Source: Antedon mediterranea
Lineage: Eukaryota > Animalia > Echinodermata
Length of the DNA: 64,000 nt
Assembly (NCBI RefSeq): GCF_964355755.1
Contig: NC_092675.1
Span: forward strand, 30,414,912-30,478,911
Direction of reading: 5' to 3'
In this document: positions 936 through 44,700 of the stretch, piece after piece
How the letters are laid out: each line of letters starts with the position of its first letter
Position numbering within the stretch: position 1 is the first letter of the stretch
Position numbers and translations under genes: made by a program
Notes under the pieces: generated by a model
The model's input: the letters and a program-made list of their open reading frames with translations, nothing else
Databases searched by the model: none
What the model was told of the DNA's origin: nothing

Positions 936-1002
936 CTGATCGTACTGTACAAAGCAAGACAAGGATTAAAAGGTTCACATGAATAACTTCTAAAGTTGAC
1001 AT
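936..1002 (-). CDS. First (signal peptide) exon of a fourth RPTP paralog, gene D; remainder lies left of the window
   Basis: Reads MSTLEVIHVNLLILVLLCTVRS + G, then a GTAAG donor. It is 67 nt and phase 1, and aligns codon for codon with gene A exon 1 (15240-15306, MLTLDVIRVNMFILVLFCKVQS). The upstream sequence is also homologous. Confidence 0.8.
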
Positions 1003-1145: not shown

Positions 1146-1334
1146 GAATGATCTTAAGTTTCAGACTTTTGAACCAAGTGATTGGCACAGACAATTTAAG
1201 GATGCGATAATACCATCAATTATGATGTGACATGATAGGGGAATAATGAACAATGGAAGAGTGAAAGTAATTTAACTCTTCCTGAATAGACCATAGACAC
1301 CAGAAAGCATTTTGGTTTTATTTTAGGCGGAAAT

Positions 1335-3674: not shown

Positions 3675-6600
3675 TTACTGAACACTTTCATAAATGTCGC
3701 ATGATCCAGCAGCGCAGACGTTTGCCATTTCATAACACAACTCGTAATGCTTCTGTGGGAAAAAAACAACATTAGTTAACTAACAGATATCGAAATCTGC
3801 TTTTAAGGCCTTGTCAATCAATCAAAATTAGATAAATATTACGAAATGGAAAAAAGTTTAATATATAGTAACACTTTTTAGTAGTAAGTTTTAAATTCAA
3901 TGGTCTGGTTTCATATTTGTTTCCACCTCATAAGACCATACGCAAGCACGAAGACAATATTGGGGTTTTTTTTTTGGAATACACGCGATTTGATATTTTG
4001 AATGTTATCTCATTTTATATTTATATATTATATAAACCCCAATATTGTCTCCGTGCTTGCGTATGATCTTTTGAGATGGAATTACGTGGTATTATAAATG
4101 CTAAGGTTGCTTAATTATGAATAAAGTATAACGTAACTTGTGTGTATACATAACCTAGTTTATCAATACCGTGACAATCTACAATAAAACGTTACCTTTG
4201 TATCAAATAACGATGGAGAAACGCGTTTGATACGTTTCACTGTGTGGTAGACATCAACCAACGCGTCTTCATTCATCTTACGAACGATTATGTCCACTGC
4301 ACAGAAAAATCCACTTCGACTCTCGTCCCTTGAGTTACAATAAAAACAAAATATAACAGAATTACCCATTAAGATTGTTTTACTTAGGAAGAATCGTTGA
4401 CAAACAGAGAATGTGGATAATATTCATATATGAAGTATCGTGAATTTAGTTGTTCAGTTAACAACTTCTTCTTATACCTGTGTTGGATTAGTAATATCCA
4501 CTTGTATGCATTGTTGTTATGATTGAATTGTGCAATTGCAATTTACAGACAATTTTAAATAAAAAAGAAATCATCAAATGAAATTATTATAGCCTAGTCA
4601 TGTGTTATGTTGTAATCTGGATTATTGACGATATGTGAGTTTATGTGGTATAGTCTATTATTATGTTTTCGACATAAAAGTTTAATCAGTTTAAGTTTGT
4701 TAACTAGATTAGTCAAAACTAAGAAATTCATGCTTATCAAAATTAGAGTGGATTTCAACGATCATGTGACCGAATTACAAGCAGAATAGTTACTTACAAA
4801 CTAAAAACTGTAACATAGTCATCTCGATTATTAGTTCGTTGAACTTCTCTGACATCGTCACAGAATTGTTTAAAGTATCCAAGAGATGAAGGTTTCTGTG
4901 ATTCTTTAGGCCAGTCCAGAAATGTCAGGTGACATATCTCACGTGGTTTTGCATGATTCTGATTATTAAGTAATGTACAATAAAGTAGTGTTTTATCATA
5001 GGAAAATCTATTACTATAATATTATTAATAATTCTTTTTTTGCATTAAAAATAGACAGGATTGTATGCATTTTTCATATAAACTGGCCAATGCGAGAATT
5101 ACCTCATACTAATATATTATTTATTTCACTATGATGCAATCTTTTACAGCTTGACCAGTATTTTACATAGGTTTGAATAGTGTTATGATATTCTTCTTTT
5201 ACCTACTTACTTTAGTCAATTTTAGTGTTCGTTTTAAAACATAATCGTGCTTCTCAGAAGATAGAACTTCAACTGCAAATTGACCTTGTGTCATCTTACG
5301 TTCAGGAACAAGTGTAGCAATTCTCTAAATTGGAAATATCATAACTTGTATTTATTATGAAAAACCCTATTATAGATTAATAATGTTTAACAGTCAGTCA
5401 AGGAAAAGAAAAAATCCATCCATGAAGATTTAACAATTTAATCTGTATTTTAAATTTTATAAAAATCTAAATTAAATAATCACACTAATCTTATCATACA
5501 ATTTACTTTACCTTATAAACCTGCTCTTCGTCATCTAACATCACCACTGTATATGACTTGTAGTCATAAATCATCTCCCAGAAATTGGAAAATTCACTTA
5601 GCATTGATTCTCTTGGCACAAGATATTCATGCTGTGACTAACACAAAGAACATTACATTACTTATAAAATGCCCAACATGGAGTTAATAAATATATAATA
5701 GTAATCCTAACGACAATTTGAATTTAAGTTAGGCCTATGTATTATATTAAATTTCACCTTACCTTGGTACTCTTCGTATTGGAATATACAACATCTTCTG
5801 ACTCAACACCAATCAATAGAGGTTCTGCAACATTCACTATCAAATACAAAATCAACTTGAAAGAACATATATAAAACTATCTTAAACGGTTAATATCAAT
5901 TATAGAGTTAGTTTACTTATATAGTGACCATTTACCACTTACATTGCAGTGTTTTATCACTTTGTGTTTGCTTTGGAAGAAGAGCTTCAATGTTCTGTAA
6001 AAGACATAATAAATAAATAATGAAATTGTAGTAATCACTCTTAGCATGTTATATATATCATTGTAGTTTCATTTAACATGTACACATTAAAAATACTTTT
6101 TCTCAAGTAATGTCCAACCCCTAAAAAGTTTGTGTGATAAATCATGGTTTTAGTACAATCAATTAGATTCCTCTATGTATGCATGTAATCTTTCAAATGT
6201 AAAGTTTAATAGAATAAGCATAAGTTATGTCACCATACATTTATCTGTTCTTGAATAACTGGTCTTCCAAGTAAACTGTTTGTGTTTTTTATTTCTTTGT
6301 ATCGTTCAGAAATATCTGTTGATGGTATGCATGTTGCTTCACAAAATAAACACTCCAAAATCATCTCGTAGATAAACACATACTGGTTCTGAAAAAACAA
6401 AAACCATTGGCATGCAATTTACCCAAATAAAACTGTGAAAATGGAACATACTGGTTCTAAAAATTTAATACGACAATTAACGTCTTCATAACTTTTTTTA
6501 ACTGTTTAAAATGATAACAAGCTACATACCTCTTTCAAACGAATATGAGGGCAGCTACTAAGTGTATCTTTTACAAAGTTGAAAACATCAATCTCACTGC

Positions 6601-9600
6601 TTTCTTTAGCCAAATCTAGCATTGCGTTTACGGCGATGACAGTTCCAATTTTGTGGCAATCGGTACTTTGTAAGAGATAATAAATAGTTGATATTTATGT
6701 CGACCATATTATTACAAACTAAAATCGACTCATTAGATTTCCTTTTATGACATGACAACATACAGAGAAATAATGCAAAGTAAATGAACTTTTAATACCT
6801 ATAGACAAGTATTGGTCCAACTCCAAAGTCTTTCTTAGCTTTCCTTAAACTGTGTGTAAACTCAATAAGATGTGCAGACGTGTCCATAACATCTCCAGGC
6901 CATGCAGTGCAGTTATATTGATGGACAACACGAGGCGGCGATTCACGATTTTCCTGCGTAAAGAAGGTTAGTTATTGGCACTTTTTTTTTTCATAAATCA
7001 CGTTTGAATAATCATTTCTGATATATGTATATATCTATTAATTATAATAATAAATAAATAAATATTTCTTAACATTACCGTCAGAATTTCGAACTTGCTG
7101 GTTGTAAAACCATTGTCTTTTAATTGATCTTCAAGTTTTCTAACAGACACCTTTCCATATTTGGTGTTCATGTATCCAGTTCCTTTTTGCCAAAATGAAT
7201 TAACTTTGGTCTTTAAGGAGGAAATAGAACAAATGCTGGTCAGTGGATCCAATAAGAGAATTATAACAGAAGGCACTACTGTAACAATTACTCTGGAAAG
7301 AACTAATACTAACCAGTCTCCGTAGGAGTGGAGTGGAGCTGTGGCTTGGTGGTTATGATGCTTGGCTACCAATCTAAGGGTCCTGGGTTCAAGTCCTGTC
7401 ATATGTCAGGGTTTTTTTTCTCATGACAATTTACAACTCCACTCCACTCCCAAAGACTTAATAATAAGTCTTTGTTTATGTAGAGCATCTTGTGTATATG
7501 TTTGTCTTGTGAAATTTTAAATAGTTTATCCTGTAATTGGCGTGTTACTCGCTGTTGGATGAGTATGATATAAAAAAAAAAAAAAAAAAAAAAAATAGCG
7601 AGTGAGTGGCTAAGCGGTTAAGACAGTGGAACCGTAATACCAATAGCCATAACATCGGCAAGGTTACGAACCTCACTCGCTCCATGATACCGGTGGTAGA
7701 ACGTGTCTTAGATACGACTATAAACCGTAGTTCCAGATCTGTACACATCTAGCTCATGTGTACTTCACCTTGTACATCTTTCTAGACGAGTAGGGGGTTA
7801 CCCCGGTGTACTAGTATACACTCAGACACTGTCACACACATCCATTCATTGCCATTGTCATTGTCAACTCTTATTATATGTGTAGTTACTGTTTATTCCC
7901 AACTATATATCTATATTATTTGGAAAGCTTTTGACTACACACATACCTTGTCACCATCAAATGTACTATTAATTATTATATCGATGTTTTCTTTAATAAT
8001 AATTTCTAATAACTGTTTTCCTTGTCCATTACCTGTTAAGAAATTGAGTGCATGGTGTGCATATTTAATATATTCAATGAATAATAATTGACATACAGAA
8101 ATGAATTATCGCAGATTTAGATAAATATCGTTAAATATTTCATAATTATTTTATTCTAGTAATAATTATTTGTTGTAAAACATTATAATTTTAGCTAGAA
8201 TACAGTATAATAATGTTCTCACCATGAAAAGCAATATATGCATTCGATTTGTTCTAAGCATAAAAAGATAATTATCAATTATAATCGATTTAAATTGAAA
8301 ATGAATAAAAAAATATTTCAAATAATATATACATTTTGTGAAATTTAGATACAGAGGTGGTTTTACACATACACTGTTGATAATAATGTTATAACCTACA
8401 TTAATGTAGCAGGCGTTTGAACTGTGAGATTCACCATCTAGACGGAGACGAGCATACTCACTCTGGAGTTCCTATTTCAAATAAAAGTAAACGTTTTCTT
8501 TATGTTCTTCAGTTTATGTTACTTCTTAAGTTAGTTATATCTATGTTGTATTTGTTAACGCACTGTAATACAATTTCTGAATATCAGTTTTTTAAAATAA
8601 AAAACAAATGTTTTTATTTACTTTTCTAGATTTTAATGTGTTTCTTTTCTTGATTTACCTCAAACTCTGACCTAAACGTAAAGCTTGTTCCTTGTTTTCT
8701 GTTTCTGATGTACATGTGTAAATCCTTTATCTTGACAGGTCGATTGTAATCAATAAATTCCATAGCAACAGGATTCAATTGGTTTGCAATCACATAACCG
8801 TCTTGCATTTCTAATAGAAATAAATCACTTGACATTTATCAGTAATGACGAATTTATGTTAGTGAATTGTTGAGACATCGTGATATTTTTAGAAACATCA
8901 ATTCGCTAAATAAGCATTTCTTGTCTTCATCAAAAAATGTATTTATTTGTAAGTATAAAGATACCGTCATTAGTAACCAAGTAATCACATATATAGCTAA
9001 ATAATACTATATATTTGCATATATATACTGTATTAGTGCCAAATAGGGCCTATTGAAATTGAATAACTCAAATCAGAATCTAGGCCAAAAAACTTTTAGA
9101 GAAATGCAAGTGGTCATTAAGAAATACTTAAATTACTAGAATGAAATATATATATGTGTACACACCTATGTTATTGTCTATTTCATCTGTAATCTTCTTT
9201 GATCTTAATGTACTATAGTATTGAGAGAATGCTAAATTATTATATTAAAGAGATAACGTATTATAATGCCATATTCGTTAACAATGTATATAACTCAATC
9301 AATTAACCATAAATAACTTATCAACATTTTATTTGTTTGACATACACAGCTGATTGGTCGTATATACGTCGTATGTTTTTAAAGTTAATCAAAGGTGTGC
9401 TAGCTTACAACATTACTTACCTTTTTCTTTTGTAGTGCAACTTTTGTAAAACGACTACAATAATTAGGATGACGACACACGAGGTTAAAAGGCCAACTAT
9501 GCACCAAACGAAAACTTCTAAAGTCGTTTAAAATACAAAAATAGCTCCATAATTTTGTTAATAATAATATCCTGGATTTATATAGCGCTTAATGTTGTGA

Positions 9601-12600
9601 AACCTCTAAGCGCTCAACATTATTACCGGCCCCAGTCATTTTTTTTGGGATCAAACACGTAGGCCTATATATGGAGACATACTCCCATAATGCAGCTAGT
9701 AATCAGCGCAAAGTTGTGTCTTGATCAAACCGGGGTTCCCTGGGTGAAGAGAGGCAAACGTAAGTAAAGTATCTTCGCTAAGGATACAAGCAATGCGGTC
9801 AGAGTTGGATTCGAACCTCAAACGATCAGTAGTCGAACGTCCAACACACTGTGCCACACGCCCTTACGGCAGTCATTGTGGAGTTGAAAGTATGGTGTAA
9901 TTTCAAAAATACAAATACATTTAAAATAGAAATGGTTAAAACATGATAGTAATCACCTACTTGTATGTTTGAATGTAATCACAGTAAAGTCCTTTTTAGG
10001 ACCGATTCCTTTTGAAGTTCTTGCTTCAATCTCAAATGTATACATCTTAGTTGTGTCAATTCCATCTATGGTAGTTTGTGTTTCTGTATATCCCGTATTA
10101 TTCTCTTTAAGTTCCAATCCATCAAGAAACAGTTTATAATCGTAGGTTATTAAACCTTTTCTGTTGCCACATTTTGGAGGTTTCCATGATAAACTAATCG
10201 AGTTAATTGTTACAGACACAACTTGAAGTGATGTTGGAGATCCAGTTGGAACTAAATAAATAAAATAAATTTTCACAATAATTATTACCGCTATTACTCT
10301 AAATCTAAGTATTATTATGTTTTATCAAATACACTTTCGTAGGCCTAAGCTTCTAATACCGTAGACTAGAAGAGCACTAATAATCAATAAACTGTTCAAA
10401 ATTGTATTATGCCTACTTTAATCTATTTAATTTATCTACAAATTGTTTTATTTCGTATGCCGTAAGGTTTAAAATACTTACCACCTTCTTCTGTTTGTAC
10501 TGTATGAATATCTGATGGTTGTTTAGCTGAGTTGGATACTGAGATTACATGGATTTCATATTTGGAATATGCACTCAGATTTGAAATGATATACGAAGAA
10601 ATGTCGAAAGGACCTTCTTCTACGGCGTTCACATGTACGTCCTCGCACATATCAGCTTGTATTAGTTGGTAAGTGACATTGTACATGACAGGACAGTCTC
10701 CATTTTCCACTTCATTCCAAGTCAGGGAAATATTATTTGTCCCAGTAGTAACATTTATTTCATCAATTTTGCTTGGAACTAATAATGCATATTTTAAAAA
10801 TCAATTATAAAAAGTAAAGTTTAATTTATTGAGTAGAGAGTAGGCCTAGTTACAAAATAATCAGTTTACAACATTCTTATATAGCTATTATTTTTAACAG
10901 TCTGAGAGTAATGTTGAAAAAAATGGAGGTGGGTGGGTGATGAGATCGATAGGTCCAATCTTACTGAATCTAAATGGTAATACGGGTACACAGAATGTTT
11001 AACTTCCAAAACAGCATACGATTGAAAATTACGGCTATTAGTTTAAAAGAGATTTGTTTGACGTGTGTGTAAAGCAGTAGAGGCTACTGTCGTCTGTTTC
11101 CCACTGTGAGGGATGAAAAAACTTTTAGTTTTGAGAATTCATAAACTAATTAATACTAGGTATAATGCTAGATATGAAGAATTTTCATAAAAATAATGTG
11201 AATAAAATAAAAAATTATTACGCTTAAAGTTCGATTAGCGACAAAATGAATTGGTTTACCATTCGCGTGAGTTTCAACTGTTTCAATATTACTCCATGGT
11301 CCTTTGAATCCACCGTTGTTCTCTATTCGTACTTTGCATGTATACAACGTGCACGTTGTTAATCCATCAATTGTAGTCGATGTAACATCACTAACAGTGA
11401 TAGTTCTAGATTCGGAATCTGACTCACAATATACATCGTAATGAAAAATGTTGCACTGTATTTTCTCTGGATCATTATCAATTTTCTGCGTAAAAAAAAA
11501 CACACACATAACATATTCAATATCAATTAATAAAAGGCTGTAATTTATGATAACATAAACATGTGTACATTTGGGGGACATCAATTTCAATGTAATATAT
11601 TGATAATGATAAAGTATTTAAAATAATTTCTAATATCATACATTTTAATACTAAACAAAATTACAGAATTATCAACTCACCTTCCATGTTATGATTAATG
11701 AAGAAGAACTATCTGCCGAAACTGTAATATGTGGAGATACCAATGGACCTATAAACAAAATGTACCAATGTTAACCACAATGTTCACATATTTCTATTTT
11801 AATACGTACTCTTTTCCTGTTTATATTATGAAGGTTATAATTGATTTTTCTCACTTGAACATATAGTTGTTTCTGTCACAACTTGACTGTCTGGTCCACA
11901 CACATCTTGTCCGCCGATGTTCTTACAGACATGAACTTTGACCTCAATTGTTCGATTTGGCGGTAACCCAGTGATTGTAAAGACGTCATCAGTTGTTGTG
12001 ATTGTTGTAAATGTTGATTCTTCTTCACTTTTATATAACACTTGATAAGATGAAGCTGGTCCAGTTCCATAATCCTCACCAAAAGTCCAATTATATGAGA
12101 TGATCATATTGGTGGCTGTGACGTCAATGAATTTAATTTGTTTGAACAAGTAGGGCAAAGCTATGGGAATGAACGTTCAGATTTTATTTACCGTCAGCAA
12201 ATACTGATAATATTAGAGTTAGCACACACAGATCAATTCAAGTACGGTTATTTATTCTTTTAACAGTAAACCGTACATGTGTTCTGTTTTCATGACACTC
12301 CTTATCATGTAAATTGCGCATGTTTATAGTACGACTTCTCTTTCTAGATTGAAACATGTGAGAAGGAATATTATTTACAGAATGTATACTGGTAGAATTT
12401 AGAATTAGATAAAATGTTGATAGGGCGCATTATACTTACCACACACTGTATTATCTTTATAGTATTATTTTGTTTCTTTTTCTTACTATTTAGTATTTGT
12501 AATCAATGTGTGTGGTAAACAAATAAAAAATATTGCACATATAAAAAGGTTATCACATAAAAAGAACATCTTATATTAAAATGGAATTGGATAAAGTACA

Positions 12601-15306
12601 TAATATGAAAATGAGAAAAACATTGATTAATGCTCACCTATCTGGCAGTCGTTGCCACCCCATCCATCTTCACAGTTTCCACTATTACAGTAACCCGTAT
12701 TTTTATCACATGAGTATGACGTTGCACAGTGACAACTATACTGACAAAATTCACCAAACTTTCCATCAGGGCATGTCACGGGATCTGAAGAAAACAATTA
12801 TGAAAGATGTACTATGGATTTTATCAGTTCAGACTACTGGTTGGAAAGATGTTTTAACTGGCAAATTCAGGATCGAATGTTAAGAAATAAATATTTACCA
12901 AGACATTTGTTTCCCTCAAATGCGTTGATACATGTAGCAGCTCCACCTAAACATCCTCTTGAGTTGTCACAATTTGAACTGCAGCGACATTCTTGACTAC
13001 ACCCTGCACCGTATCTAGTCCCTGCACATGCTATTTTAAATAAATCAAAATAATAAGTAACTTTTATATCATGACTTGTAGCATTACTATTTAAAGTAAT
13101 ATTTTAAAGACAAACATACGACACACCTTGCTCACATGTATCACCATGGAAACCTGCATTACACGAACATCCAGCAGGATCTGGAGGACACAACATGTTT
13201 CCTGTGCATGATCCGCCGGTCGCGCACTTAATGCCGCATGTCCGGCCCCAGAGATTGTTTCCACATCCTGAAAAATAATAATGTTAGTTTACAACATTCA
13301 GTATTTTAAATGTAACTTATAAAAAAGTGCAATTCAGTTTAATAATAAAATGAAATTGGAATATGATTTTTTTATTTGGTTAGTCAGATTTTATACCAAA
13401 CGCTGACGCAAACATTTTGACAAATCGTGGACATATCGTATTTAACATTTTAATCTGAAACTTACTTTTTGTTGTCATAAGGTCAGTATCTGGCTTAGAA
13501 ATATTCCATTCATCAACCAAAAAAGTTTCAAATTGTTTCCATTTTGAAAGAAGGTAGGGGTGTGTGTAACTTGAGTTATTTTAGATTTGAGTGGTGCGTT
13601 TGGTTTAACAATTTATAAAATTATCCCTTCAAATACTCAATACAGTTTCCAGCAAAAATGTATAATAATTTTATCTGATTTAACTTCAATTCCATAATGA
13701 AATACTGGAATACTATAATATAGTGTAAATTCCAAATTCAAAATACCTTCAGAACAATCAGAACCTTTAAATCCTGGTGGACATACACATAATCCAGTCA
13801 CGTGATCACATATTCCTCCATTATAACAAACTGGACAATTGTCTTTACACTGTGGTCCATGTTTTCTTGTAGGACAACCTTCAGTAAAATAACACGACTT
13901 TATAATATGTTATAATATGTTCTGCTTTTTATACCAGTATCTTGAAAATAGTCTATTTACAAATTATAGAGATAGACGGATATTAAAACATATTTTTTAA
14001 CCCTAACCAATGCAATACAAATATCATTGACCCACCTCTGACAATCAATCTCATCATTGCATGTTTTCCGTTTCTTTCTTTGTAACATTCATATATTCCA
14101 GCATCACTTGTTCTGATATTATTAATAGTCAATGTATCTTTACCATTGCCTTCTGGTATGTCAACGTTGTTTAATTTCCATTTTAATTCTGATACACTGA
14201 TTGTGGTACGGACTTGTAAAGTCACGTGATCACCAATACTGGCTGTAATAAATCGTTGGATTGGAGTGACGTCAGCTAAAGAAATTTGATTTTAAAATTA
14301 AACAATTTGTATTAAAAGGTAAAGGTAAGAAACCCCAACCTTCTTCAGATCTATTGACCACGTTTAACCACTTTTCCCCGTTTTTTTTTTTGCAGATAAA
14401 AATCAGATAATTATCGTAGGCTGGTGTGGTGTAAAATAAAGATAATACTCTTCAAATCACAAATCTATAATGGTTATTAATGTGGTGTTTTCCTAACTTT
14501 ACTAAACATGTAAATATCAAAGTTGTAATGGTAATATCAAAATATCATTACTCAACATTGTTATGTTACTAAAGTAAAAATGGTGTATTAAAAAGAATGA
14601 CATCCAGAATTTCCCTTATTTAAATTGAGAAATACAACTTACCATTTTCAGGTAATATGATGATAGATATATCTTGTGATCTTGAATCTTTTGTAGCAGT
14701 CGCGAAGAAAGCGCCAACTTTTTCAGCACCCGATCCTGCATTGATTCTAACACGTAATGCGCTATATTCAGTTGTATCTTTTTGCTGTACTGTCGATCCT
14801 GTGGGGAACATGGTACCAGAAGGTACAGGTGCAGGCGTGTTTCCAGGTGCGTTAGCATCGTACCATGTTACAGGTCTTCCTTGTAACCCAGTGCCTGTGT
14901 CAACCTCTCTTCCAAGTGATATGTCTTGCGTTTTATCTGGTGTGCCAGCATAACCTCCAAATCTTGGTCCTATAGTTATTTCTTCAATGTCAACAGTTGG
15001 GTTGTCACACCACATAGTAAAATCAAGGATTTCATCTAAGTTAATTAAAGGAGATGATTATTGGTTGTGTGTGTGTGTGAATTATTTAGATTTACTGAAT
15101 ATAATAGATCGATATTCTATCAACAGAGGAAATAAAATACCATTTTGCAATTCATAACTTTACACTTTTAAAAATATTCTTTACACTATTAGGCTATTTG
15201 CTTGTCTAGCCTCTTTTATAATATAATTACATTGCTTACCTGATTGTACTTTACAAAACAAGACTAGGATAAACATGTTCACACGAATAACGTCTAACGT
15301 TAACAT
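3675..15306 (-). CDS. Gene A: multi-exon RPTP-like pseudophosphatase; SP, N-terminal Ig-like, Ig, 4 EGF-rich exons, 4 FN3, TM, degenerate PTP D1 and D2
   Basis: GT-AG exons spliced in frame: SP 15240-15306; N-domain 14643-15035; Ig 14036-14275; EGF 13747-13878, 13127-13267, 12899-13030, 12638-12784; FN3 11855-12160, 11681-11748+11260-11485, 10482-10778, 9961-10251; TM 9421-9517 (VFVWCIVGLLTSCVVILIIVVVLQKLHYKRKR); 9166-9203; 8659-8810; D1 8400-8471, 8223-8253, 7947-8032, 7079-7210, 6799-6953, 6530-6665, 6239-6388; D2 5943-5994, 5763-5837, 5521-5637, 5211-5324, 4798-4958, 4196-4328; last exon 3675-3752 ends SCDIYESVQ*. Confidence 0.88.
3923..4080. mobile_element. MITE-like inverted repeat in last intron of gene A
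   Basis: ~45-bp arms: CCACCTCATAAGACCATACGCAAGCACGAAGACAATATTGGGGTT and AACCCCAATATTGTCTCCGTGCTTGCGTATGATCTTTTGAGATGG. Confidence 0.65.
7329..7595 (+). mobile_element. tRNA-derived SINE with poly(A) tail
   Basis: A-box-like TGGCTTGGTGG, B-box GGTTCAAGTCC, unrelated body, A-run at ~7572-7595. Confidence 0.6.
7597..7865 (+). mobile_element. tRNA-derived SINE with Nin-domain-like core
   Basis: TGGCTAAGCGG A-box, degenerate B-box, core GACTATAAACCG...GAGTAGGGGGTTACCCCGGTG, CATT-type tail. Confidence 0.55.
9558..9865 (-). mobile_element. tRNA-derived SINE with Deu-domain-like core and L2-like 3' tail
   Basis: Minus strand: GTGGCACAGTG...GGTTCGAATCC head, GCCTCTCTTCACCCAGG core, tail AGCGCTTAGAG...AAGCGCTATATAAAT followed by (ATT)n. 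A related copy is at ~48700-48850. Confidence 0.65.
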
Positions 15307-15396
15307 GCTTGTCAATTGCTTACACTTCTAAATAAATAACTCCTTCGTTTCATAGACCAGATTTCATGGATTCAGTAGGCCTATTAGTAGAGCTAC

Positions 15397-15417: not shown

Positions 15418-15504
15418 TTCGGACTTTTGAACAAAGTGAATACCATTGTCAACAACATGACAAAAAAAAACAGGAAGCATTTTGGTTTTATTTTAGGCGG
15501 CAAT

Positions 15505-16220: not shown

Positions 16221-16832
16221 CATATACGCTTCACAGGACAGACGCAATAAATAAAAAGAACGCTCGACTGTGAAGCTCACGGATTTCGAAGCATTGTAGA
16301 TAACTCGCATAATTTTCCCTGATACCCTCATTTATTTTAGTTCAACCTTAATGTCATCATAATCTGTCTTTGACCTGATTATTACAACTTATCCCTTTTA
16401 TTTCCGAACCCCTCTGCTACATTTTCAATCTTTGTTTTGTAAATGGCACCTTTCCTGACACCCTTAAACTAGCTAAAGTAACTCCTATTTTTAAAACTGG
16501 TGACAAATCTGATTCCAGTAATTACCGTCCTATATCAGTGCTACCGATCTTTTCCAAAATACTTGAACGCCTTATTTATGATCGAACATACAATTATCTT
16601 CAAAAAAATAGTATACTTTACAATAAACAATTTGGCTTTCGTAAGAACTATAATACATCCACCGCACTTCTTCAATTAACAAATGAAATTGTTGGGGCTT
16701 TCGAGAGGGGTGAATTTGCCATTGGTATTTTCATTGACCTCTCGAAGGCCTTTGATACAATTGATCACGATATTTTATTATATAAGTTACATACTTATGG
16801 AATCCGTGGCCCTGTATATAATTTATTCAAAA

Positions 16833-21372: not shown

Positions 21373-22431
21373 GTAAGTTGTATTAATTAGTTTTATCATA
21401 TTTATAGTTTCATTATTCGAAATAAATATCATTATATATTGTTATTCATGCTGGTAATGGATTGAAATGATACATTTTACCCTGTTGAATTGTGGTGTAT
21501 TAGTTCCTGGTTATACTCTACATACTGATGTATGTCTATGCGCTTATCACACCCTTAACTATATTCACTGTTTGAATAGCCTTAACCTAACTCGGTTCAA
21601 AAGTCCGTAAACACAGACGAAGAGGAAATAATTGTGTTCCTTGTTTCATTTGTTAGTGGATAGATGCAATAGGAATGAGGATATCTATGTTTGTCTAAAA
21701 TGTATAGATACAAGTATATTTAATGAGTTTGAAAATAACGGATAGAATTGTGAGAAACTACAACTATCATGAGCCAAATGTCAATATTCAGGGATATTCG
21801 TGTGAACATTTCCATCCTAACTTTAATCGTGTTTGTTACGGTAAGATCAGGTAAGCAACTCGAGTAGTTATGTAATGGTTGTCAAATGTTGGCAAAGAAT
21901 ACTTTGTAATGACAATGTCAGTGAAATGTTGAATTGGTAGGAACGTATTAGCTTCAGGCTCTATATAATGCCGAATGCGCTCAATGGTCCTGGACAGTTT
22001 AAAGGAATATAGTTGTTTAGTTCCTTCTGATTTCCATATTTTAATCGATTGGATATTTGTTCTCCTTTCATACGTTTCTATGTACATGTACGCGTTTTAT
22101 GGATTAATTATTTGGTGTAAATTTACCCGTTTGTTTAAATCAGTTATAATAACACCATAGATTTACCCGAATAGTAGGTTAACGGGTATAGGCCCCACTC
22201 TATTATCCACGTAACGCACTTAAAGGAGCATAGTACCAATACTACAATTATTAACATTATTATAAAAATGCAACAAAATAGAGTGACAGTTGAAATTTAT
22301 CATTTTTAAAATATTATATAGAGAGTAGAGTATTTTGACATTTCAATAATTAAGGACTTGACAGAAAGTTTGCATTATCAATCCTAGTGGGACTCTATCT
22401 ATTTTATTAATAAAACAGGCCTATCATTTTT

Positions 22432-24106: not shown

Positions 24107-27100
24107 ATGAAATCCTTGACCTCACAATATGGTGCCCAACTCCAACGGTTGACATTTCTAGTTCTAGCAGTGAAGTATCAACATTTGGAGGTTATGCTGG
24201 CTCTCCGGATATAACGGAGGATATAACACTTGGACGGAAGAGCGACACAGGCACTGGGCTACAAGGAAGAGCTGTAATGTGGAGTGATGGTGGACACACA
24301 CTAGATTCTGATGATAATACAATGTTTCCTCCAGGTTCTGGCGTAGTAACAAGAAAAGACAGCGCACGTAGCGCATTAATTGTTGATATCGATGCTGGAT
24401 CAGGTGCTAAAAAAGTTGGTGCTTTTTTCGCGACTGCTACAAAAGAGTCCATATCGCAAGATATATCTATCATCATATTGCCTGAAAATGGTGAGTTGTA
24501 TTTCTTTGAATATGGAACAAAGTATAGATACTGATTTACATCATTGTAGTACAGCTTTATACCTATATAAAGTGCGTCTTATTGAGAGTCCGTATACAAT
24601 TAAAATAAAATCTAGTTAACCGTTAGGCCTAGTTGAAATTTACATGAAACATTTTTTATTTAAAATAATATTAGGCCTAATTCGTTAATTCATTCATTCA
24701 ATCGTTTAATCTGTTAATCGTAATCTCTGGTCAATAGAAAGTAACATTATGTATAAATTAACAAAATTAAACAAACTGTATACTGACTAATTACAATAAT
24801 GCTCTACTATAATAATGGATTGATAATGTAACTATATAGTTTTAACTTTTATTATAATATAATTATATTATGGCAACGAATGATGAAATAACATTTTTCT
24901 GCATCCACCCAACTGTTATGTGATAGTTTGTTTAAAATTGTAGCCAGTGGTTTCCTGACCATGTAACACAATAGTTATTTCAATGAATATTTAATGAATT
25001 TGTATAGCTGAAGTCACTCCACTCCAACGGTCTATCACTGCCAGTATTGGTGACAACGTGACTTTACAAGTCAATACCACAATAAATACGTCCGATTTAA
25101 AATGGAAATTAAACAACGTTGACATATCAGAAGGCAATGGGAAAAATACATTGACTATTAATAATATCAGAACAAGTGATGCTGGAATATACGAATGTTA
25201 TAAAAATAGAAACGGAAAACATGCAATGATGAGATTGATTGTTAGAGGTAAGTTACACTAGGCCTATTTGTGGTGTGTTTGTAATTAAAGGATTTGATTC
25301 AGTTAAAGACTAAACTGTATAAAATGCAATTTCTTTGGAGGGTCCCCATCCGTTCTCGTTCTGTCGCGGTCCCCTACCTAGGTGACCAAACAAAGGAGCA
25401 GGATACACATTTGTCTTGCCACAGACGACTAGGTACTCAGAGACAACAACCAAGACAGAGGCACCCCACAGATAATGCTGGCCAGGAAAAAGTATACTAT
25501 ACAATTCTAAGTCTAGAGCGTAGAGAGTTAAGGAATATTGATCACAAGTTAATACTTTAAAACATGATTAAACAGTCTCTATAGCTTTAAACTAAAACCA
25601 ATAGACGGTGACTTATATAACTAATACAACAATGTAATTTAATTGTAAAACGATAATAGGGGCCTACGCAAATATCTTAGAATACTAATTAACAACTAAA
25701 TACTATTTGGAATCAGCGTTTGTCTCAAGATAACAGAACATGATTCTATAATAATTAATACATAATACAATTAATAACATTTAACTAAGGTTGCCCTACA
25801 AGAAAACATGGAAACAATTGTGATGAAAATTGTCCAGTTTGCTACAATGGAGGAATGTGTGACCACGTGACTGGATTATGTGTATGTCCACCAGGATTTG
25901 AAGGTGTTGATTGCTCACAAGGTAACGTTAAGAATTTTTCTCACTTAACTTTCAATTTTAAATTGCTTTCCTTTTATATATGTTTTCATGAAGTTGGCAA
26001 AGACTGTAATACTCATCTGACTCTTCCTCACACAATATTGAAATGATGTGTCTTTTCTGTTGGTATCATAATTATGTGTATCCATTATATGCACTGATAA
26101 ATTTGTAAACATAAATATGATTAAACTAAATTTGACACATTCATTCTATTATAGATATCTGAAAAAAGGGATTAAATTGTAAAATACTAGTTAAATTCAA
26201 TTTGAGTTATCACAGATTCCTGTAACTACTTTTAGGATGTGGAAACAATCACTGGGGTCGGAAATGCGGCATTTTTTGTACGGGTGGAGGATCATGCTCG
26301 GGAATCTTATTGTGTCCTCCAGATCCTGTTGGATGCTCTTGCAATGCAGGCTATCATGGTGATACATGTGATCAAGGTGAGTATATGTTGAAATTCAAAT
26401 TTTTTATTCTTATTCTTCTTATTTAATAATAACAACTAATAATTATTAACAACACTATAATGTCAGTTGCTTCAATAAAGCTATATTTATTTGTTTATTG
26501 AAACCAGCATGTACAGTTGGCTCTAACTATGGTGCAGGTTGTAATCAGGAATGTCACTGCAGTTCAAACTGTGACAACGCAAGAGGATGTTTAGGTGGAT
26601 CCGGTACATGTAGCAACGGATTTAACGGAGACAAATGTCTTGGTAAGATGTGTATACTTATTTTTATTGCATGAAACAGTTCATGATTAATGTTACTTTG
26701 TGATGTTTAGTAATTTATGCTCATCTATGTTTTATTATTTATTTACGTTAAAAAATTTAAAAAAACAATTCACATTTCATTTTATAATATTATTTATACT
26801 TTTTAAATTTGTTTTATATTCAATTTTACGATAACCACCAATCAAGTGTTAAGCTAGCTACCAGCTTAGTTATTAGATAATACATTGTACTGTATACTTA
26901 TTAATGTATAATGTCTAATGTCGTTATCTTGGTTTTTGTCTTTCAATGATTATTATTGTTTGATTCAATTATTTATTAATTAGTATTTAAGTTCCCGATT
27001 AGAATATAATCTATTATGGTTTATTATAATGGTTCATAATGAAATAATATTTTCGTTAGATCACGTGACATGTCTTGATGGAAAGTTTGGTGAATTTTGT

Positions 27101-28933: not shown

Positions 28934-28970
<37 letters not shown>

Positions 28971-31900
28971 TCATTATCTTTAAGATTGTTAAGTTTCTCA
29001 CTGGTAGCCAACATGTCTGTTTCATATTGACCATCATCAAATCTGCAGAAAAATTTGTTTAAGGAGTCCACAAACTTCTTGTCACATTCACCTACGTATT
29101 TTTTCGGTTTTTCTTTGTAGTCAGTGAGCATATACATTGCCTTCCAGGCCGAACGCGTGTCTTTATCCTTTAAATGTTTTTCCATTTTAGCTTTATATTT
29201 TTGTTTTGCTTTTAATATACTAGCATCAATCTCCTTCTGAATTCGCTTCGCTTCATCTTTCTTACCGGCTGCATATTCTTTTTTCTTTTTAACTATGAGA
29301 CATTTCGTTTCATGTAAAAACCATGGCTCGCAATTTGGGTACATTTTTGTCTTCCTTTTAGGTATAATGGTATCAGCACAATAGTTTATGTATGAACAAA
29401 CAGCATTCACTTCAACATCGATAGAATTTTCGGATTCTGAGAAAACACCCCAGTCCGTAGATTCAAAACAACCCTTTAGCATATCAATTGCCTCAGTGCT
29501 CCAGATCTGCCTTTCTTTGATTACAGGCTTCTGTCTTTTTAAGATTGGCTTGTAGAGTGGTCTTAGAATCACGATGTCGTGGTCAGAGTTTTCCAATGGG
29601 GCACATGTTTTAGCATTATAAGCCTTTGGGATGTTTGAATAACACAGATCCAGAATTGCATTTCCTCGTGTTGGTTGCTGTACAAATTGTTTAAACGTAG
29701 GGAGAACAGTGTTCAGGTTACATTGGTTAAAATCTCCCAGAATGATTTTTACAGCGTCTGGGGAATGCGATTCAATATTATTGACCTGCTCAGCAATGTG
29801 TTCACACGCGATAGTATAATTTGCACCTGGGTGAATATATACTATAAAAATAAAAATTTGTGGAAATTCGCGCGGTAAGTAGAAAGGTCTGATCCCAACA
29901 GTAAGTACTTCATAGTCGGGTGTACAGGCTTTCGACCAAACCTTCCAGTTGTTACAAAATTGTTGGTTAATATAAAGACAGACTCCACCACCTGTAGTTT
30001 TACCTGAATTTATGGTTCTATCACTTCTCAGGAATGTGAAATTTTCAAGCTCAATGGCTGAGTCAGCGATTTCATCTTTGAGCCATGTCTCCGTAAAACA
30101 TAGTAATGAAGCTTCTCTATATTCATGGAGAAATCGTATATTAGCTCGCAGTTCGTCCATTTTGTTCATCTTTCACATCATGAAATTATTTGTATCATTG
30201 CACTCATAAACATTTGTATAACATTATTTTACGCCATTTCCGGGTATTTCCCTAATCATAAGTATAGTCAACTGTTTGTACAGCAATTTATTTATTCTGG
30301 ACATCATGAAAAGTCAAACATAATAGACCAACATACAAAGTAAAAGTTATCTACCTTACTCCAAAAAGCCATTTCATTCATAGCAGACACGAGCATGCCA
30401 CTGGATCTATACGGTAGGCCTACTTTGGGTAATGCAACAACGCCTGAGTGAAATTATTATTATAACATGTAGGCCTATAGGGGTAGTTTTAAATTTTCAG
30501 CATACATTATTGCAATATACGCGTTCATTTGGAATTTTTTAAAAGGCAATATTTATTCAATACATACTGTAGATAGTATGTATAGTAATATTATGTGTAA
30601 TATTGTTTGCAGCTTTACCAATTCTGTCATCTGCACCAACTATATCGAATATAATGGATAACTCAATAACAGTAAACTGGCCTGCTTGGGATTATAACAA
30701 CGACTACGGAACCGGACCGATTCAGGAGTACGAAGTGCAGTACAGAAGTTCTATTAACTCAGATTTCATATCAGCAGGATCCGTGAATGGAAGCAAACCT
30801 GCGCCAGAATATGTAATAAATAATCTCAGTCCAGGGACCAATTATGAAATCAAAATAAAAGTAGTTAAAACGGCATCATCTACAGAGACCAATATATTTA
30901 CTTACACTCCTACAGCAGTAGCAAGTACAGATGAGGGTAAGATGCAAATATAACAATGGCAATTGTTCAAAAGTGTTTTACAACAGTTTTACAGAAATGT
31001 CCTAATACACATTTTCAAAATCAGGGTTTATGTGTTTATTTGTTTGAAACTACTAATTAAAATTATTTCTTCTTTATTTTAAAATTTAAAAAAATTAATG
31101 ATGGAAAAGGCAATTGTTTTGAATACCAGGCACTTGCAAATTAAAAAAAAGTGTTCCAGTATTTTTTTACCGTCAAATTATTGCTTAATTATTAATTTAA
31201 TGTTTTAGGTGAAATCCTCGACCTTACAATCTGGTGTCCAACTCCATTTGTTGATATTAGTTCTAATATAGTATCAACATTCGGAGGTTATACTGGCGGT
31301 TCAAATCAAACACAAAATATCTTTCTTGGAAGAGAAAGCGACACAGGTACTGGGTTACAAGGAAGAGCAGTAAAGTGGAGCGATGATAATACAGATGGAG
31401 ACACAACTGTACCACCTTCTGTTACAATGTTCCCCACAGGATCAACAGTAGAAGGATCAACGAAGAGTGGACGTACGGCCCTGGTTGTCGATATCTATGG
31501 TGATTCAGGCCTTCAAAAGGTCGGAGCATTTTTTGCAAACGCTACAAAGGACGGCATATCTCAGCATATACCTTTCATAATACTGCCTAAAACTGGTGAG
31601 ATATAATTACAAAACAAGTTTTAGGTTTGGCTTTTGTCAAGCTACTAACTAATGAGAGAGGTATGCCTTTCCATTATGGTCAGGTTGTAGACTGGCAAAG
31701 TAGCGTTAGAAGAAACACACATGTCCTAACCTGTCCTGTTAAATCTTTAAATCCGCAGGGATTGATTTATAAGCCAGTTCTATTAATTATACATTTCTGC
31801 CCGGCCAACTCGTATCTTCTACTTATACATAGTAGGCCTAATGATGCTAATAATTAAATTAATTTTGTCTTTACATTTTATTCAAGTGGAATGTCTATAT

Positions 31901-38700: not shown

Positions 38701-41700
38701 GTCTAAAACATAGAATTTAATTGATACAATTAGTAATTTGTTTAATTTATGCTCAACGTAATATCCTTTGATACAATTGTATTTGTTTTTTTTTTCCTTA
38801 TCAAAAGCTCCTGATAAAGCGCCTGAGATAATGACAATGGTTGATCAAGAGCCGTATTCTTTAACTATATCGTGGTGGGAGATTCCGTGTGGTAGTCGTA
38901 ATGGTGACATGATATATGAATATTCATTGAAAGATAAGAATAATGTTATTATACAAGAAGCAAGTACAAAGTCTAACACAGTGAATTTAGATGAAGATAT
39001 AAAGCCATGTAATGAATATACTTTTGAAGTTAATGGAAAGAACGAAAATCTAGAAAAAGGACCAAAAACATCTGAACATATTCAAAGTGGCACTGAACGT
39101 AAGTGAATAATCGATCATGTTGTAATTATCTTCTATGTTAATATACTGTATAACACAATTATGTTATACAAATATATTATTTGTTTTAAAAATAGTATAT
39201 CTTTTTAGATAATGGTAGAAAGCCTATTACACACCATACTATTACTTTTCTAGCTCCGGGAGATCCTGAAAATATCAAAGTAACTCCCGGAAAGGATACA
39301 GTTGAAGTTGAATGGGAAGCTCCAACCAGTAATGATTGTACAGTAGATAATTATACAGTGACACTGACGTCATCAGGAGGTGGTAAAATTAGCAAAACCG
39401 TTAGTGGATCAGTAACGAGTACGACGTTTAAGAGTGATGATGGTATCAAGCCAAACACAGAGTATACAGTTGAGGTCAGTTATTATTATAAATGATAAAA
39501 AAGATAATTGGTAATACTATAAAATCTAAAACCTTAACAGTTGTCTCGATGTCCCACATCAGAATTTTCACCAATTTACATTAATTCATATTTGTATACG
39601 CTTTAAGACATTAACAATTGATAATAGACTGATTTCCTCTTCTTGTTTTGTGTTATGTAGGTAGTAGCGAGTAATTCTGCTGGTTCTGGCAATAATTCCC
39701 CAGAAAAAGAAACGATTAAAACCGATCCTAGAGGTACAATTTAATTTTTATATTCAAATGCTTTCATACTCACTACCTTGCATGCAATATACAACAATAA
39801 AGCTCACACAGAACCAAATACTTAAACTTATTACAAGTATGTTTAAACAAATGTGAACTTTAAAGTTACGTTACTTGTAATATTGTTTCATTCTGTTTTT
39901 TGTTTTGTTTTGTATACCGCACGGAAATGGAATTAAATGCGTTTAAATAAGTGAGCTTATAAAAGGTTGTCTTGAACTGGACAATTACAATTGTATACCT
40001 TTACAGAATATTTAGTGACCATATGTTTACTGTAATGTAGTCAATATAAATGTTGTTAACGTAAGATTCATCAATGTGTATATCATTTATTTCAGCTGGA
40101 TTGATTGCTGGACTCACTATTCCATTTGGTATTCTACTCTTTGTGTTGATTGTTTTTCTTGTGGTACTAAAGAAACGGTAAAAATCATCTAAATAATACG
40201 CGTTTCTAGGCTACATATCAGAACACTAGACACACAGTTTAGTCATATGAAACATCATCAAACTTATTATAATAAACATCTTAGATATTTTTCAGGAACT
40301 TACAGTAGTTCTTTTTCTAAATATATATTCAATTAATCAATAAAAAATCTATTAGTAATAATATATTTTTTTAAACATATTATAATAACAATAATATAAG
40401 TACAGAGAATATTTACAATTTAGCCAATAATGATAAAATATAACAATAACTATTATAAATAAATTATATTAAACAAGTAAAGTAATAAGCGAATTACATT
40501 ATATTTGTATATTTGTTATATTTTAACTAGATTCTCAGATGAGAAGTAATACTTCGTCTTTGATATTTTGACCTCTCTGTCTATTTTAGGCAATCTAAAG
40601 ACAATGATCAAGGAGTTGGTGGGATAGAAAATCCGAACCCCAGCCACCCTATGGGTAAGTTAAATTAAGCTAATTAAGTCAACTTAACATTTTGACAACG
40701 ATTTTCACCAAATAGAAATTTCGTTTTGGATATTGTCTGTATCGTTTAGAAAGAAAATTATTACAGGCCAATTGAATTCCAATGAAAATATTCGTACTAA
40801 ATCATTCTTTTATAATAATTTTATACAAATTTCAAATATGCATGATGATAATGATCTCCATGCATTTAAGCAAAAAGAAAGAAAACTGTATAGCAGTACT
40901 ATTATAAAGGTTATGGTACAATAATGTAATAATCAAGGCCATCTACATGGCTGCAGTCGCGTGCGCAAGTTTGAGTTTGTGTCTACGGACCGACCGACCA
41001 ACCGACCGACATAGTGAGCTAAAATGAATACGGTATAACATTTCCGTTTTTGTTGATAATTAATTATTACTTTAGTTGATTGATTCATATTTAGATCACA
41101 TTATACCGGGACATGTTTCGCCAAGACCTACTCCAAAATCAACTTCCTACCAATATGTACGTCTGCGCGACCTTCAGAATTACGTCCGGAAAAGACAAGG
41201 CCATGAAACAGAAACTTTTAAAAAGGAGTTTAGTGTGAGTTTATATATACTTTTTAATTTACAAACAAATACCATAAAAATAGGTAATAACAATCACGAT
41301 CAAGTTTGTTTTCTAACTCATATACCCTATTTATCATTATTGGCTAAGAATACTGAGATTTAACACGTTCTGCCAATTGAACGCACTTAACAACATCTTG
41401 GTACATTGGTCATATTATGTTTGGCGCTTTCCTCGTTGTAGGCCTACTTAATAAAGTGCATATTGAGAATGCCACTGATTATCAGTGTAACCCTAACCCT
41501 AACCCTTCATATTATTAGCGTTTATACGCCGATGGTTAGGGTTGGTACTGATTCGGCAGGTACTGCAACGGCAAAAACATTCAGTTCACTGTACATCAAA
41601 CATAAACCAATCCACAACATAAATGCATTGTATTTTTTATTTAGGACATTGGATGCAGCATGTTACATCCTTGTATCGAGGCTAAGAAATCCATTAACAG

Positions 41701-44700
41701 GATTAAGAATAGATATGCCAACATTTTAACATGTAAGTTCTGGTGATGTTACTACTATGTCAATATATTTATTTATAAAATATATATATATAAATAAAAA
41801 GCTTCATAGTATTTATTTATACCGTTATGGTTGTTGCTATAAGTGGTATATAGTAAAAAATGTGTTTTTAACATTTATAATTATGTTAACATTATTTTCT
41901 AGATGACCACTCACGTGTGGTTCTTAAGGAAACCGATGACGATGAATCTGATTATATTAACGCTTCATATATCAAGGTACAATTTAGAAAACTGCACACT
42001 CTCAACGTACAATAATATACAATTTATAAATGATAAAGACACACAAATATATAACTTATTACTATATTCCAAGCTTTTATCACCTCTAAATATATGTACA
42101 TAGGCCTAAGGAAAATGTGGATTAAAAACGGTCTGTACGCGAAGAAGGTGCTTTTATACTAAATAGTATTGATTTATTTCATATGCATACCGTTAAATGT
42201 ATCATCATTAATAAGCAAAGTTTATGTTATTTCATTTTTATCTTAAAGTTCAATGGCAATTCTAAAGCGTACATTGCATCTCAAGGTATTTAATTATATT
42301 ATTTTTCACCTGTTATACTACTAGGAATGTTTGTATAAAAGATGTTTAGTACTACAATGGTCATACAACTATTACTGTATATTATGTCTAGGTCCAAATG
42401 AAGCAAGTTTAAACGATATTTGGAGAATGGTTTGGAAAGAAAACAGCAGTATTATTATTATGGTTACAAATCTAGTTGAAAAAAATAAGGTGGGAAATTG
42501 AATATTATTTGACATCTTGCATTTTAAAACGACATGAAACGATATAATAATAAGTTAATATTAAAAACATCACTATCAGAATCATCCGCATTATGCTCGG
42601 AATTATAAACGTACATTACATTGTTATCGAATCTTTTTTTCCAATCGGGCACATTATTATTTCCATGGTACAGTTTGAAGACCATAACGGATTACGTATA
42701 CAATCAGAATCGCTTATTATTTTAGCACAATCCAACGATTATATTATTATAGATTAAATGTAAACAATATTGGCCAGATGTTGGTGAAGCAGTAGCGTAT
42801 GGACGTCTTACTGTTACAAATGTTGACGAAAAGATCACTTCATATTTCACTATTAGAAAATTTGAAATTAAAATGGTAAGTTAAGAAAATAATACAATTA
42901 TTATTATGTAAATGGGGTGAAACAGTAATTTTATTTTAATTTTAGTATTTTTTAAAGTGTTATTTATAATTTTAAAAACCTTACAGTAAAGAAAGCACAT
43001 AATTAATTAATTTATATGTTAGATATTTTCACAGGAATACTATACTACATAATATTTCGGATGATTTTGTTTTTGTTTTTTCTATTTATGGTTCAGTAAA
43101 TAAGGTTTTCTTTTTCTTTAATTTAGGAAGGCCATTCAGAAACACGTTCTGTGCTTCAATACCATTTCACTGCATGGCCTGACATGGATGTTCCTGCCTC
43201 CCCAGCACCATTACTTGAGTTTGTCTACCAAATTAAAGAGGTTAAGAGGTCTCTTCCAGCCGACACTGGCCCAGCAATTGTTCATTGCAGGTAAACAAGT
43301 TTTTTCAACGTATTCTGTTTATAGCCTACGTCAAAGATTCTGTATGGTAAATGCATAAAATGGCATAATGTATGATTTATTTACTAGGTAGTGAATAATA
43401 ATAATATTTAAGATACGTTAAACTTTATGAGAAAATAAATTGACGAATCAAAATAGGAAAACCTTACTAAAGATTTTGTTTGAATAGTAGAAAGAAATAC
43501 TACGTATGGCAAAAAAAAGGATGATTCATTGGTTTTTTTAAAGAAGTTTAATTTTGTTTCTAAAAGAATAATAAGAATTTTGATGCTTTTTTTGCAATAA
43601 AAAACCTACTTATATTTATATGTTTATATAAGCAGTATACTGTAATGTGTATTTGTCATTTTTAAGTGCTGGCGTTGGACGGACTGGTACAGTAATAACC
43701 ATTGATGCTATGTTGGACATGGCTGAAGAAAAGGATAAAATCGATGTATACAACTTTGTGAAAGAAATGAGAGAAAACAGATTTAATATGGTACAAACAC
43801 AGGTAATAATTTGACGCATTCGTTATTAGTAAAATTGCCAAGTTTCACATTTAAAAAAAAATTGGAATTACTCATGGTTAGATAAATAACAAGATTTGAC
43901 AGACTTTAAGTTTGAAGTAAGCAACTTAGAACGGTCTAAATAAGATTGCAAAATAAATGATAATGTTAGATTGGACTATCTTTATCTATCACTGTAGTTA
44001 AAGCAATATCATTGGAGTATGTGAAAGTAAAGCAAAGCTTAATGTTACTTTTAGTTAAACTTAGTGTCAACATTATTTAGCCATGGAAGCCCGAACCAAC
44101 ACAAGGTTGTTCTTCTCGGAGTCGTACACTCGTATTACAATCATGAAATACTAAGACGAAATGGAAACCTACAATAATATTAATACAATAATTGCAACAC
44201 ATAAAACAAATTTAAATCGTATTTAAATTGTATTTATTTCTCAGGGGCAATATATGTTTATATACGAGACTCTTCTGCAAAGTCTGTTTTGTGAGTCGAC
44301 TCATATAACGACAGAAGCTTTTACAGCGTCGTTTAGAAAGTTAAAAGAAACCAACAGTCGACACGGAACGAAATTTATACACGAACAGTACAATGTAAGT
44401 GAAGCACACTTTATAAATGTCAATTTAGATAAACGTGAAAGTACATTTAACCTTATTATTCCTTGAGAAATGTCCTCAATTTACGTTTTTCTATTGGTTT
44501 ATACAGGTTCTGATGGCGCTATTGCCACTTCCGTTGTCTGATAAAACAAGAGCAGGAAAAGATCCTGCAAACGTTGACAAAAATAGATATCCAAGTATAA
44601 TACCAAGTAAGGCTTCAAATGTATCGTAAATAGTATCATTAGTATCATCTTCATAAAAATCAACGCATTGTTGTGTTCAAAGATAAGCTAATAATGATTA

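Follow-up and report, generated by a model that had tools for sequence, protein, structure and literature searches.

What do four related exons contribute to the receptors that carry them, when most of each exon is conserved and a few segments differ sharply? The question is raised by a 64,000-nucleotide stretch of the genome of the crinoid Antedon mediterranea (NC_092675.1, positions 30,414,912 to 30,478,911), called here the window, in which lie three receptor genes, named A, B and C, together with what is likely the beginning of another. An initial annotation, made from the letters alone, had described the four exons as an N-terminal domain with a conserved framework, three length-variable loops and no canonical immunoglobulin (Ig) disulfide, and had compared it to a diversified ligand-binding tip. 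By sequence comparison and structure modeling, the domain is a homologue of the first Ig domain (Ig1) of the Tie receptors and sits in an Ig1-Ig2-EGF (epidermal growth factor) head. As judged from sequence, a Tie Ig1 without its disulfide, carried by a family of receptor phosphatases that has expanded and been shuffled, is a real feature. For the further proposal, that the Ig1 loops are a diversifying recognition surface of an expanded receptor tyrosine phosphatase family, we consider the case evenly balanced, though we rank it ahead of the alternatives.

The four Ig1 exons

The exons lie at 14643..15035 on the reverse strand (copy A, a Tie-type Ig1 exon without the disulfide between strands B and F, first domain of gene A), 24107..24490 on the forward strand (copy B1, first domain of gene B), 31209..31595 on the forward strand (copy B2, in the second, internal module of gene B, which consists of Ig1, Ig2, four EGF domains and a fibronectin type III (FN3) domain) and 60853..61221 on the reverse strand (copy C, in gene C after scavenger receptor cysteine-rich (SRCR) exons). 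Each has an open frame, AG/GT ends and phase 1-1, which confirms all four at their first-assigned positions. The shared motifs quoted for them are all present, and each copy has one cysteine (4/4), at residue 9 on strand A. Protein identity among the copies is 57–65%, far above chance, and a scan of the window with a family hidden Markov model (HMM) found no fifth Ig1 copy (next match E 0.77). The description as N-terminal fits copies A and B1, each preceded by a signal-peptide exon, and fails for B2, behind an FN3 exon, and for C, behind the SRCR exons.

The blocks designated B, C, TMFP and F average 81–95% identity; the averages for loop 1, loop 2 and the D to D–E segment fall to 16%, 30% and 26%, respectively. 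The B–C segment is a fourth variable stretch, with 40–42% identity. Two of the three proposed loops vary in length, loop 1 (7–9 residues) and loop 2 (9–16 residues), and "loop 3" (26–27 residues) hardly does. In copy A, on the reverse strand, loop 1 comprises residues 17–24 in the A'–B turn (14962..14985), loop 2 residues 58–73 within an insertion between strands C and D (14815..14862), and "loop 3" residues 78–104, spanning strand D, the D–E turn, strand E and the E–F helix (14722..14802).

A Tie-type Ig1 domain

Single-domain searches of Pfam and PDB sequences gave nothing significant, and the Pfam family for Tie2 Ig1 (Ig_Tie2_1, PF10430) matches none of the four window copies; it matches one relative weakly (E 0.0029, 18.4 bits against a cut-off of 25; one of 13 members of sequence set A3). 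A word-based search of longer proteins returned 0 of 384 candidates and was too insensitive, since other searches found relatives. The only ESM Atlas matches were to phage clusters, below 0.9, and we take them as chance. The first EGF exon of gene A has Tie2 EGF1 as its best match (E 4.6e-11). A profile of 65 sequences (A4) aligns with Tie2 (4k0v) from chain residue 3, in the first strand, with an E-value of 2.4e-87 that covers the whole profile and to which the downstream domains contribute most.

The AlphaFold model of copy A is an Ig sandwich (predicted local distance difference test, pLDDT, 93.5) with strands at residues 5–9, 24–30, 38–44, 81–86, 90–96, 107–115 and 118–128. Nearly all of its top structure matches are Ig domains, with Z up to 9.8; Tie2 is not among the best 50 matches listed for the isolated domain, where many Ig rows are tied. 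Its loops are ordered (block pLDDT 85–96), so the disorder that the initial annotation had raised as a counter-argument is not seen in this copy. The Ig1-Ig2-EGF model of P0018, a natural Antedon relative used here in place of the window's own spliced module, superposes on Tie2 (2gy5) with Z 30.3 and a root-mean-square deviation of 2.2 Å over 268 aligned residues. It covers Tie2 23–302, the ligand-binding region; the Foldseek E-value is 5e-20, and the next structure matches have Z about 10. The domain packing in P0018 is a prediction, since Tie2 may be among the structures that AlphaFold learned. The model confidence, the Ig structure matches and the alignment to Tie2 bear out the earlier suggestion of an Ig-like fold without the canonical disulfide.

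Loss of the canonical disulfide

In the profile alignment, the B-strand cysteine of Tie2 falls on the second glycine of FGGY and the F-strand cysteine on the last alanine of GAFFA, as the initial annotation had guessed for the Ig cysteine pair. The Tie2 residues concerned are C44 and C102 under the offset implied by the P0018 superposition. All four window copies have glycine and alanine at these two sites, and the canonical B–F disulfide is thus absent.

An iterated HMM search over fetched proteins gave 86 domains, and after removal of four that are incomplete at a cysteine site 82 relatives outside the window could be compared. Both the B- and the F-strand cysteine are kept in 12 of them (10 amphioxus, Ciona and one sea urchin); 12 have the A- and F-strand cysteines, eight the F-strand cysteine only, and 50 lack the F-strand cysteine. 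Disulfide loss is thus, on sequence comparison, old and widespread, and an origin special to this locus is ruled out, as the pair is missing in 70 of the 82 complete domains. Loss is tied to a long C–D insertion, the segment in which loop 2 sits: none of the 43 domains with the insertion has either canonical cysteine, and none of the 32 domains with an F-strand cysteine carries the insertion. In a tree of Ig1 domains, based on few columns and weak at the deep forks, the window copies and Anneissia P0014 make up one clade (support 96/98) inside a crinoid group.

Two further observations concern the remaining cysteines. The 12 relatives with A- and F-strand cysteines and no B-strand cysteine (P0009, P0010, P0012, P0013, P0020, P0025, P0027, P0028, P0032, P0040, P0089 and P0091) may have a relocated disulfide. 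Ig2 has a single F-strand cysteine in 14 of 14 modules examined, which together with Cys9 of Ig1 leaves two cysteines without a canonical partner in each window module; these might conceivably bond between domains or between chains.

Selection and polymorphism in the loops

Among the four paralogs the ratio of nonsynonymous to synonymous rates (omega) is 0.15 in the framework, 0.95 in loops 1–3, 1.56 in loops 1 and 2 and 3.3 in loop 1. These estimates come from an MG model with kappa fixed at 1 and fixed partitions, and with four paralogs their power is low. The difference between 0.95 and 0.15 supports the picture of diversified loops on a conserved framework. Positive selection, for which the initial annotation had proposed a test, is not supported: omega is not significantly above 1 for any loop set among the four paralogs (twice the log-likelihood difference, 2dL, 0.19, 0.41 and 1.38).

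Polymorphism adds a second line of evidence. In sample S1, long contigs whose depth fits a single locus show, relative to copy A, the changes D15E, E18G, I19N, P32S, G64E and N65D, a silent change at G49 and a one-codon insertion near residue 70; in a third S1 run, a stretch of 674 bases is identical to the window. The two haplotypes are 98% alike over exon and intron, and we read the S1 variant as a second allele of copy A, or less probably as a very recent duplicate. E18G and I19N lie in loop 1, with D15E just ahead of it, and G64E, N65D and the insertion lie in loop 2. Loops 1 and 2 (72 bp) hold five substitutions, all of them amino-acid-changing, and one in-frame codon, compared to six substitutions in 698 bp of flanking intron, a substitution rate about 8 times that of the intron (Fisher 0.002; 0.03 if clustered changes count as single events). 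The rest of the covered exon has three substitutions in 261 bp (Fisher 0.014 against loops 1 and 2). The loops had been named before the haplotype data were seen, and the count takes no account of differences toward the 3' end of the exon on contigs that are short or look paralogous.

Silent divergence and homogenization of Ig2

The Ig2 exon, at 14036..14275 on the reverse strand in gene A with copies at 25008–25247, 31999–32238 and 60459–60698, has one cysteine and low silent divergence. It had been called almost invariant; the copies are in fact 81–89% identical (86% quoted overall). The proportion of silent differences (pS) is 0.54 [0.47–0.61] for Ig1 and 0.20 [0.12–0.28] for Ig2, and higher for Ig1 in six of six pairs. 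The contrast between Ig1 and Ig2 thus arises because there is less silent-site divergence in Ig2, and not through stronger constraint, which we reject since omega over the whole exon is equal (0.35 in Ig1, 0.37 in Ig2). Base composition is also rejected as a cause, as fourfold-site divergence is 0.42 in Ig1 and 0.20 in Ig2, and recent duplication of whole genes is rejected because the introns that flank Ig2 do not align. Their alignment is no better than that of shuffled sequences in 12 of 12 comparisons, which implies that the gene copies are old and that the Ig2 exon was probably homogenized on its own.

The Ig2, EGF1, EGF4 and first FN3 exons are 80–90% alike among A, B and C, and the FN3d exon is patchy, with a pS of 0.11 between A and C and 0.76 between A and B2. 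Between the well-conserved EGF1 and EGF4 lies EGF2 (13127–13267, 26236–26376, 32810–32950 and 59959–60090), which at 58–59% identity is as divergent as Ig1 and may be a second variable surface. A comparison of Ig1 with Ig2 across clades is weak, as motif-based extraction gave 14–15 modules only, among them three of ten from amphioxus; crinoid clade II, Ptychodera and Patiria are not represented.

Architecture of the three receptor genes

Splicing was deduced from the DNA and from annotated relatives. Gene A, on the reverse strand, consists of a likely signal-peptide exon (15240..15306), Ig1, Ig2, four EGF exons (12638..13878), four FN3 domains (9961..12160), a transmembrane segment (approximately 9420..9515) and two domains resembling protein tyrosine phosphatase (PTP), the cytoplasmic tandem exons at 3680..8810. 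Gene B, on the forward strand, has a likely signal-peptide exon (21778..21850), then Ig1, Ig2, four EGF domains and FN3 twice in succession, more FN3 domains, a transmembrane segment (approximately 40095..40178) and two PTP domains (41600..47630). That B1 and B2 belong to one transcript is our deduction, and the relatives P0036–P0038 likewise carry two such domains. Gene C, on the reverse strand, opens with SRCR exons (61469..64000, two complete and one more truncated at the window edge; the gene start lies outside the window) and continues in the layout of gene A, with the transmembrane segment and tandem PTP-like exons at 49770..56985. Apart from being deduced from DNA, the exons follow the plan of a tandem-domain receptor PTP, with signal peptide, one transmembrane segment and two PTP domains. 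None of the three genes has a cytoplasmic tyrosine kinase, as all end in PTP-like domains.

The catalytic motifs of the first PTP domain (D1) separate the genes. Gene B has KNRY, WPD and HCSAGxGR-type motifs, with a degenerate second domain (D2). The WPD and P-loop motifs are degenerate in gene A (WPG, LVY|STDCHK, no Cys-x5-Arg) and in gene C (WPG, LVY|STDCQR), which makes these two likely pseudophosphatases. In this arrangement (6520–6970, 43127–43802 and 54240–54650) the active-type gene B is placed between two genes whose D1 is probably dead, head to head with A and tail to tail with C.

A homologous signal-peptide exon at 936..1002 on the reverse strand marks a probable fourth gene that leaves the window at its left edge. 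The sequence upstream of it is also similar to that of gene A (936–1002 and 1301–1466, reverse strand, compared to 15231–15327 and 15471–15646). Reverse-transcriptase open reading frames resembling long interspersed nuclear elements (LINEs), recognized by eye, lie between A and B (16379–18092, forward), in an intron of gene B (27516–30172, reverse) and in an intron of gene C (52831–53646, reverse). An intron of gene C holds a tandem repeat (58685–59280) of roughly six copies of an about 99-bp unit with a 50-bp sub-period. A 200-bp element, probably a small repeat, occurs with 93% identity in introns of B (25319–25515) and C (52631–52833).

Relatives and comparison with known receptors

The nearest full-length relatives are crinoid proteins, those of Anneissia japonica and Antedon mediterranea, and the 82 copies outside the window are joined to a kinase, to a PTP or to no enzyme. 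The same domain is carried by invertebrate deuterostome proteins named "angiopoietin-1 receptor-like", "Tie-1-like" or "RPTP T/kappa/S-like", names that are automatic only, from the crinoids Anneissia and Antedon, a brittle star, acorn worms, amphioxus and sea stars. The Antedon mediterranea protein P0017 is a mosaic: its Ig1 half is nearest to B2 (76%), and its FN3c and FN3d are nearest to A and C (81–90%, compared to 53–62%). By summed contig depth there are roughly 15–25 Ig2-like and 3–6 Ig1-like copies at an identity of at least 80%, and loose contig ends point to more paralogs, which match the framework and then depart at loop 2. As a separate observation, seven amphioxus proteins (P0071, P0076, P0080–P0083 and P0085) combine in one chain a Tie-like head and a fibrinogen domain, which is also the fold that the ligand of Tie2 adopts.

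The window genes resemble Tie1 and Tie2 (TEK; PF10430; PDB 2gy5, 4k0v) in the order Ig1-Ig2-EGF-EGF, the predicted packing, the equivalence of cysteine positions, the EGF1 match and the FN3 stalk. They differ in lacking the B–F disulfide, in a C–D insertion of 20–27 residues, in having four EGF exons with no Ig3 found, in a module that is repeated (gene B) or placed behind SRCRs (gene C), and in forming a multi-gene family whose tail is a tandem PTP or pseudo-PTP instead of a kinase. The tandem receptor PTPs PTPRS, LAR, PTPRA and PTPRE are the best PDB matches of the PTP region of relative P0044 (E about 1e-130), and the predicted active-type D1 and degenerate D2 of gene B are as in those receptors. 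They have no Tie-type ectodomain; theirs is Ig-FN3 or MAM-Ig-FN3, and D1 of A and C is seemingly dead. A third comparison is with paired or diversified innate families. SIRP, Siglec-5/14 and PIR are paired-receptor families, and with them and with Sp185/333 the window genes share clustered paralogs, patchwork similarity and a mixture of signaling-competent and -incompetent members. The likeness is one of sequence arrangement alone: the families have no sequence relationship, and the output here would be a PTP domain and not an immunoreceptor tyrosine-based inhibitory or activation motif (ITIM/ITAM). Conversion tracts smaller than a gene are discussed for sea-urchin Sp185/333 in PMC3342357.

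No paper that we found, judged by title or the start of its abstract, describes Tie-ectodomain phosphatases or the Ig1 variant or groups these proteins into one family, subscription literature lying mostly outside this coverage. A 2006 study of sea-urchin PTPs by Byrum et al. may describe some family members. Tie is not mentioned in the available portion of bioRxiv 2025.07.21.665930. According to PMC4898815, vertebrates have two Tie kinases, and Tie underwent lineage-specific duplications in sea squirt and/or amphioxus. In sea cucumber, one cluster of coelomocytes is marked by a TIE1-annotated transcript (PMC11925454), and PMC3342357 cites a 2010 work by Stevens whose title concerns SpTie1/2 in coelomocytes.

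Do the Ig1 loops form a recognition surface?

If the loops are a diversifying recognition surface, the following mechanism can be proposed. In an Ig1 without the B–F disulfide and with a long C–D insertion, exposed loops would bear the specificity. Exon-limited gene conversion would keep Ig2, EGF1, EGF4 and the first FN3 alike, with Ig1 escaping, and Ig1 would give each receptor its own ligand or cell surface to recognize. The response of gene B would come from its intact D1 phosphatase; genes A and C, their PTP domains being dead, would serve as modulators, scaffolds or competitors, as in paired receptors. An immune or cell-recognition role is a guess.

Several results weigh against such a surface. 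No loop set has omega significantly above 1, and the loops were chosen for their variability; the most variable nine-codon window relative to silent divergence scores 1.27, compared to 0.59–1.16 in other exons. The same Ig1 segments vary in other clades, as ordinary surface loops do. Whole-exon omega does not separate Ig1 from Ig2, and EGF2 is as divergent as Ig1. The polymorphism comes from one sample, one gene and collapsed contigs, its clustered changes could be conversion tracts, loop 3 shows no allelic change in the second haplotype, and the ratio of seven nonsynonymous to one synonymous change is no departure from neutrality (p 0.39). Ig1 is internal in two of the four copies (B2 and C), and Tie2 binds angiopoietin through Ig2 and not Ig1, according to PMC8560823. 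The name "ligand-binding tip" fits poorly with these last two points. A single tip is doubtful too: B2 and C have the domain in an internal position, and loop 1, in the A'–B turn, and the D–E turn should lie at opposite poles by standard Ig topology.

Many of these points would also follow if Ig1 were a structural packing unit whose loops drift neutrally, with a shared ligand bound by a conserved Ig2 whose exons are homogenized or younger. We hold this chief alternative quite possible, if not probable. It accounts for a loop omega that does not differ from 1 (pN/pS 1.02 [0.80–1.32]), for the Ig2 ligand site of Tie2, for the variation of the same segments in other clades and for the divergence of EGF2. 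On the other side, the likeness of Ig2 extends to silent sites (omega 0.37) and is by itself no proof of a conserved binding site; the loops of copy A, moreover, are ordered in the model. Neutral loops are expected to be no more polymorphic than introns, and the excess in loops 1 and 2 of copy A is the sole result that they do not predict, seen in one individual and one gene.

Another reading is a code for self/non-self or cell identity, in which Ig1 domains would bind each other between cells in an allele- or paralog-specific manner and phosphatase B would report the match. Dscam, the clustered protocadherins and Hydractinia Alr are analogues of such an Ig1–Ig1 code. The clustered paralogs, the allelic loop changes and an inhibitory-type phosphatase output would suit it. 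The evidence against it is stronger: only two haplotypes were seen, 98% alike over exon and intron, and strongly balanced allorecognition alleles diverge far more than that; Ig1 is also internal in B2 and C. We therefore consider it improbable. Decay of A and C as redundant duplicates, with loop divergence from relaxed selection, draws on their missing catalytic motifs and the LINE-like insertions in and between genes, and is very improbable, since open frames and splice sites persist in all compared ectodomain exons, for which omega = 1 is rejected (2dL 7.6–82.7), and since the dead-PTP type recurs in P0017 of Antedon mediterranea, at 89% identity over one PTP exon.

Implications

Even with neutral loops, the family records a graded loss of the Ig disulfide (B+F, A+F, F only, none) that is tied to the C–D insertion, and it adds a variant of the Tie-type Ig1 that Pfam misses. 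In invertebrate deuterostomes at large, moreover, the Tie head serves as a module that has been shuffled among phosphatases, pseudophosphatases and kinases. Should the loops of Ig1 determine specificity, crinoids would have an undescribed diversified receptor family with a variable Ig1, an interchangeable stalk and live and dead phosphatases. A broader conjecture, tentative and rather unlikely, is that in crinoids, and probably in other echinoderms, the Tie head has given rise to twelve or more genes that act as a polymorphic recognition family, with loops specific to allele and paralog on an Ig1 that lacks the disulfide, a stalk kept alike by conversion, and live and dead phosphatases as paired receptors. 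Immunity is, to our knowledge, less studied in crinoids than in any other echinoderm class, and if the polymorphic paired-receptor reading is true, these genes would be a candidate basis for echinoderm immune or self/non-self recognition.

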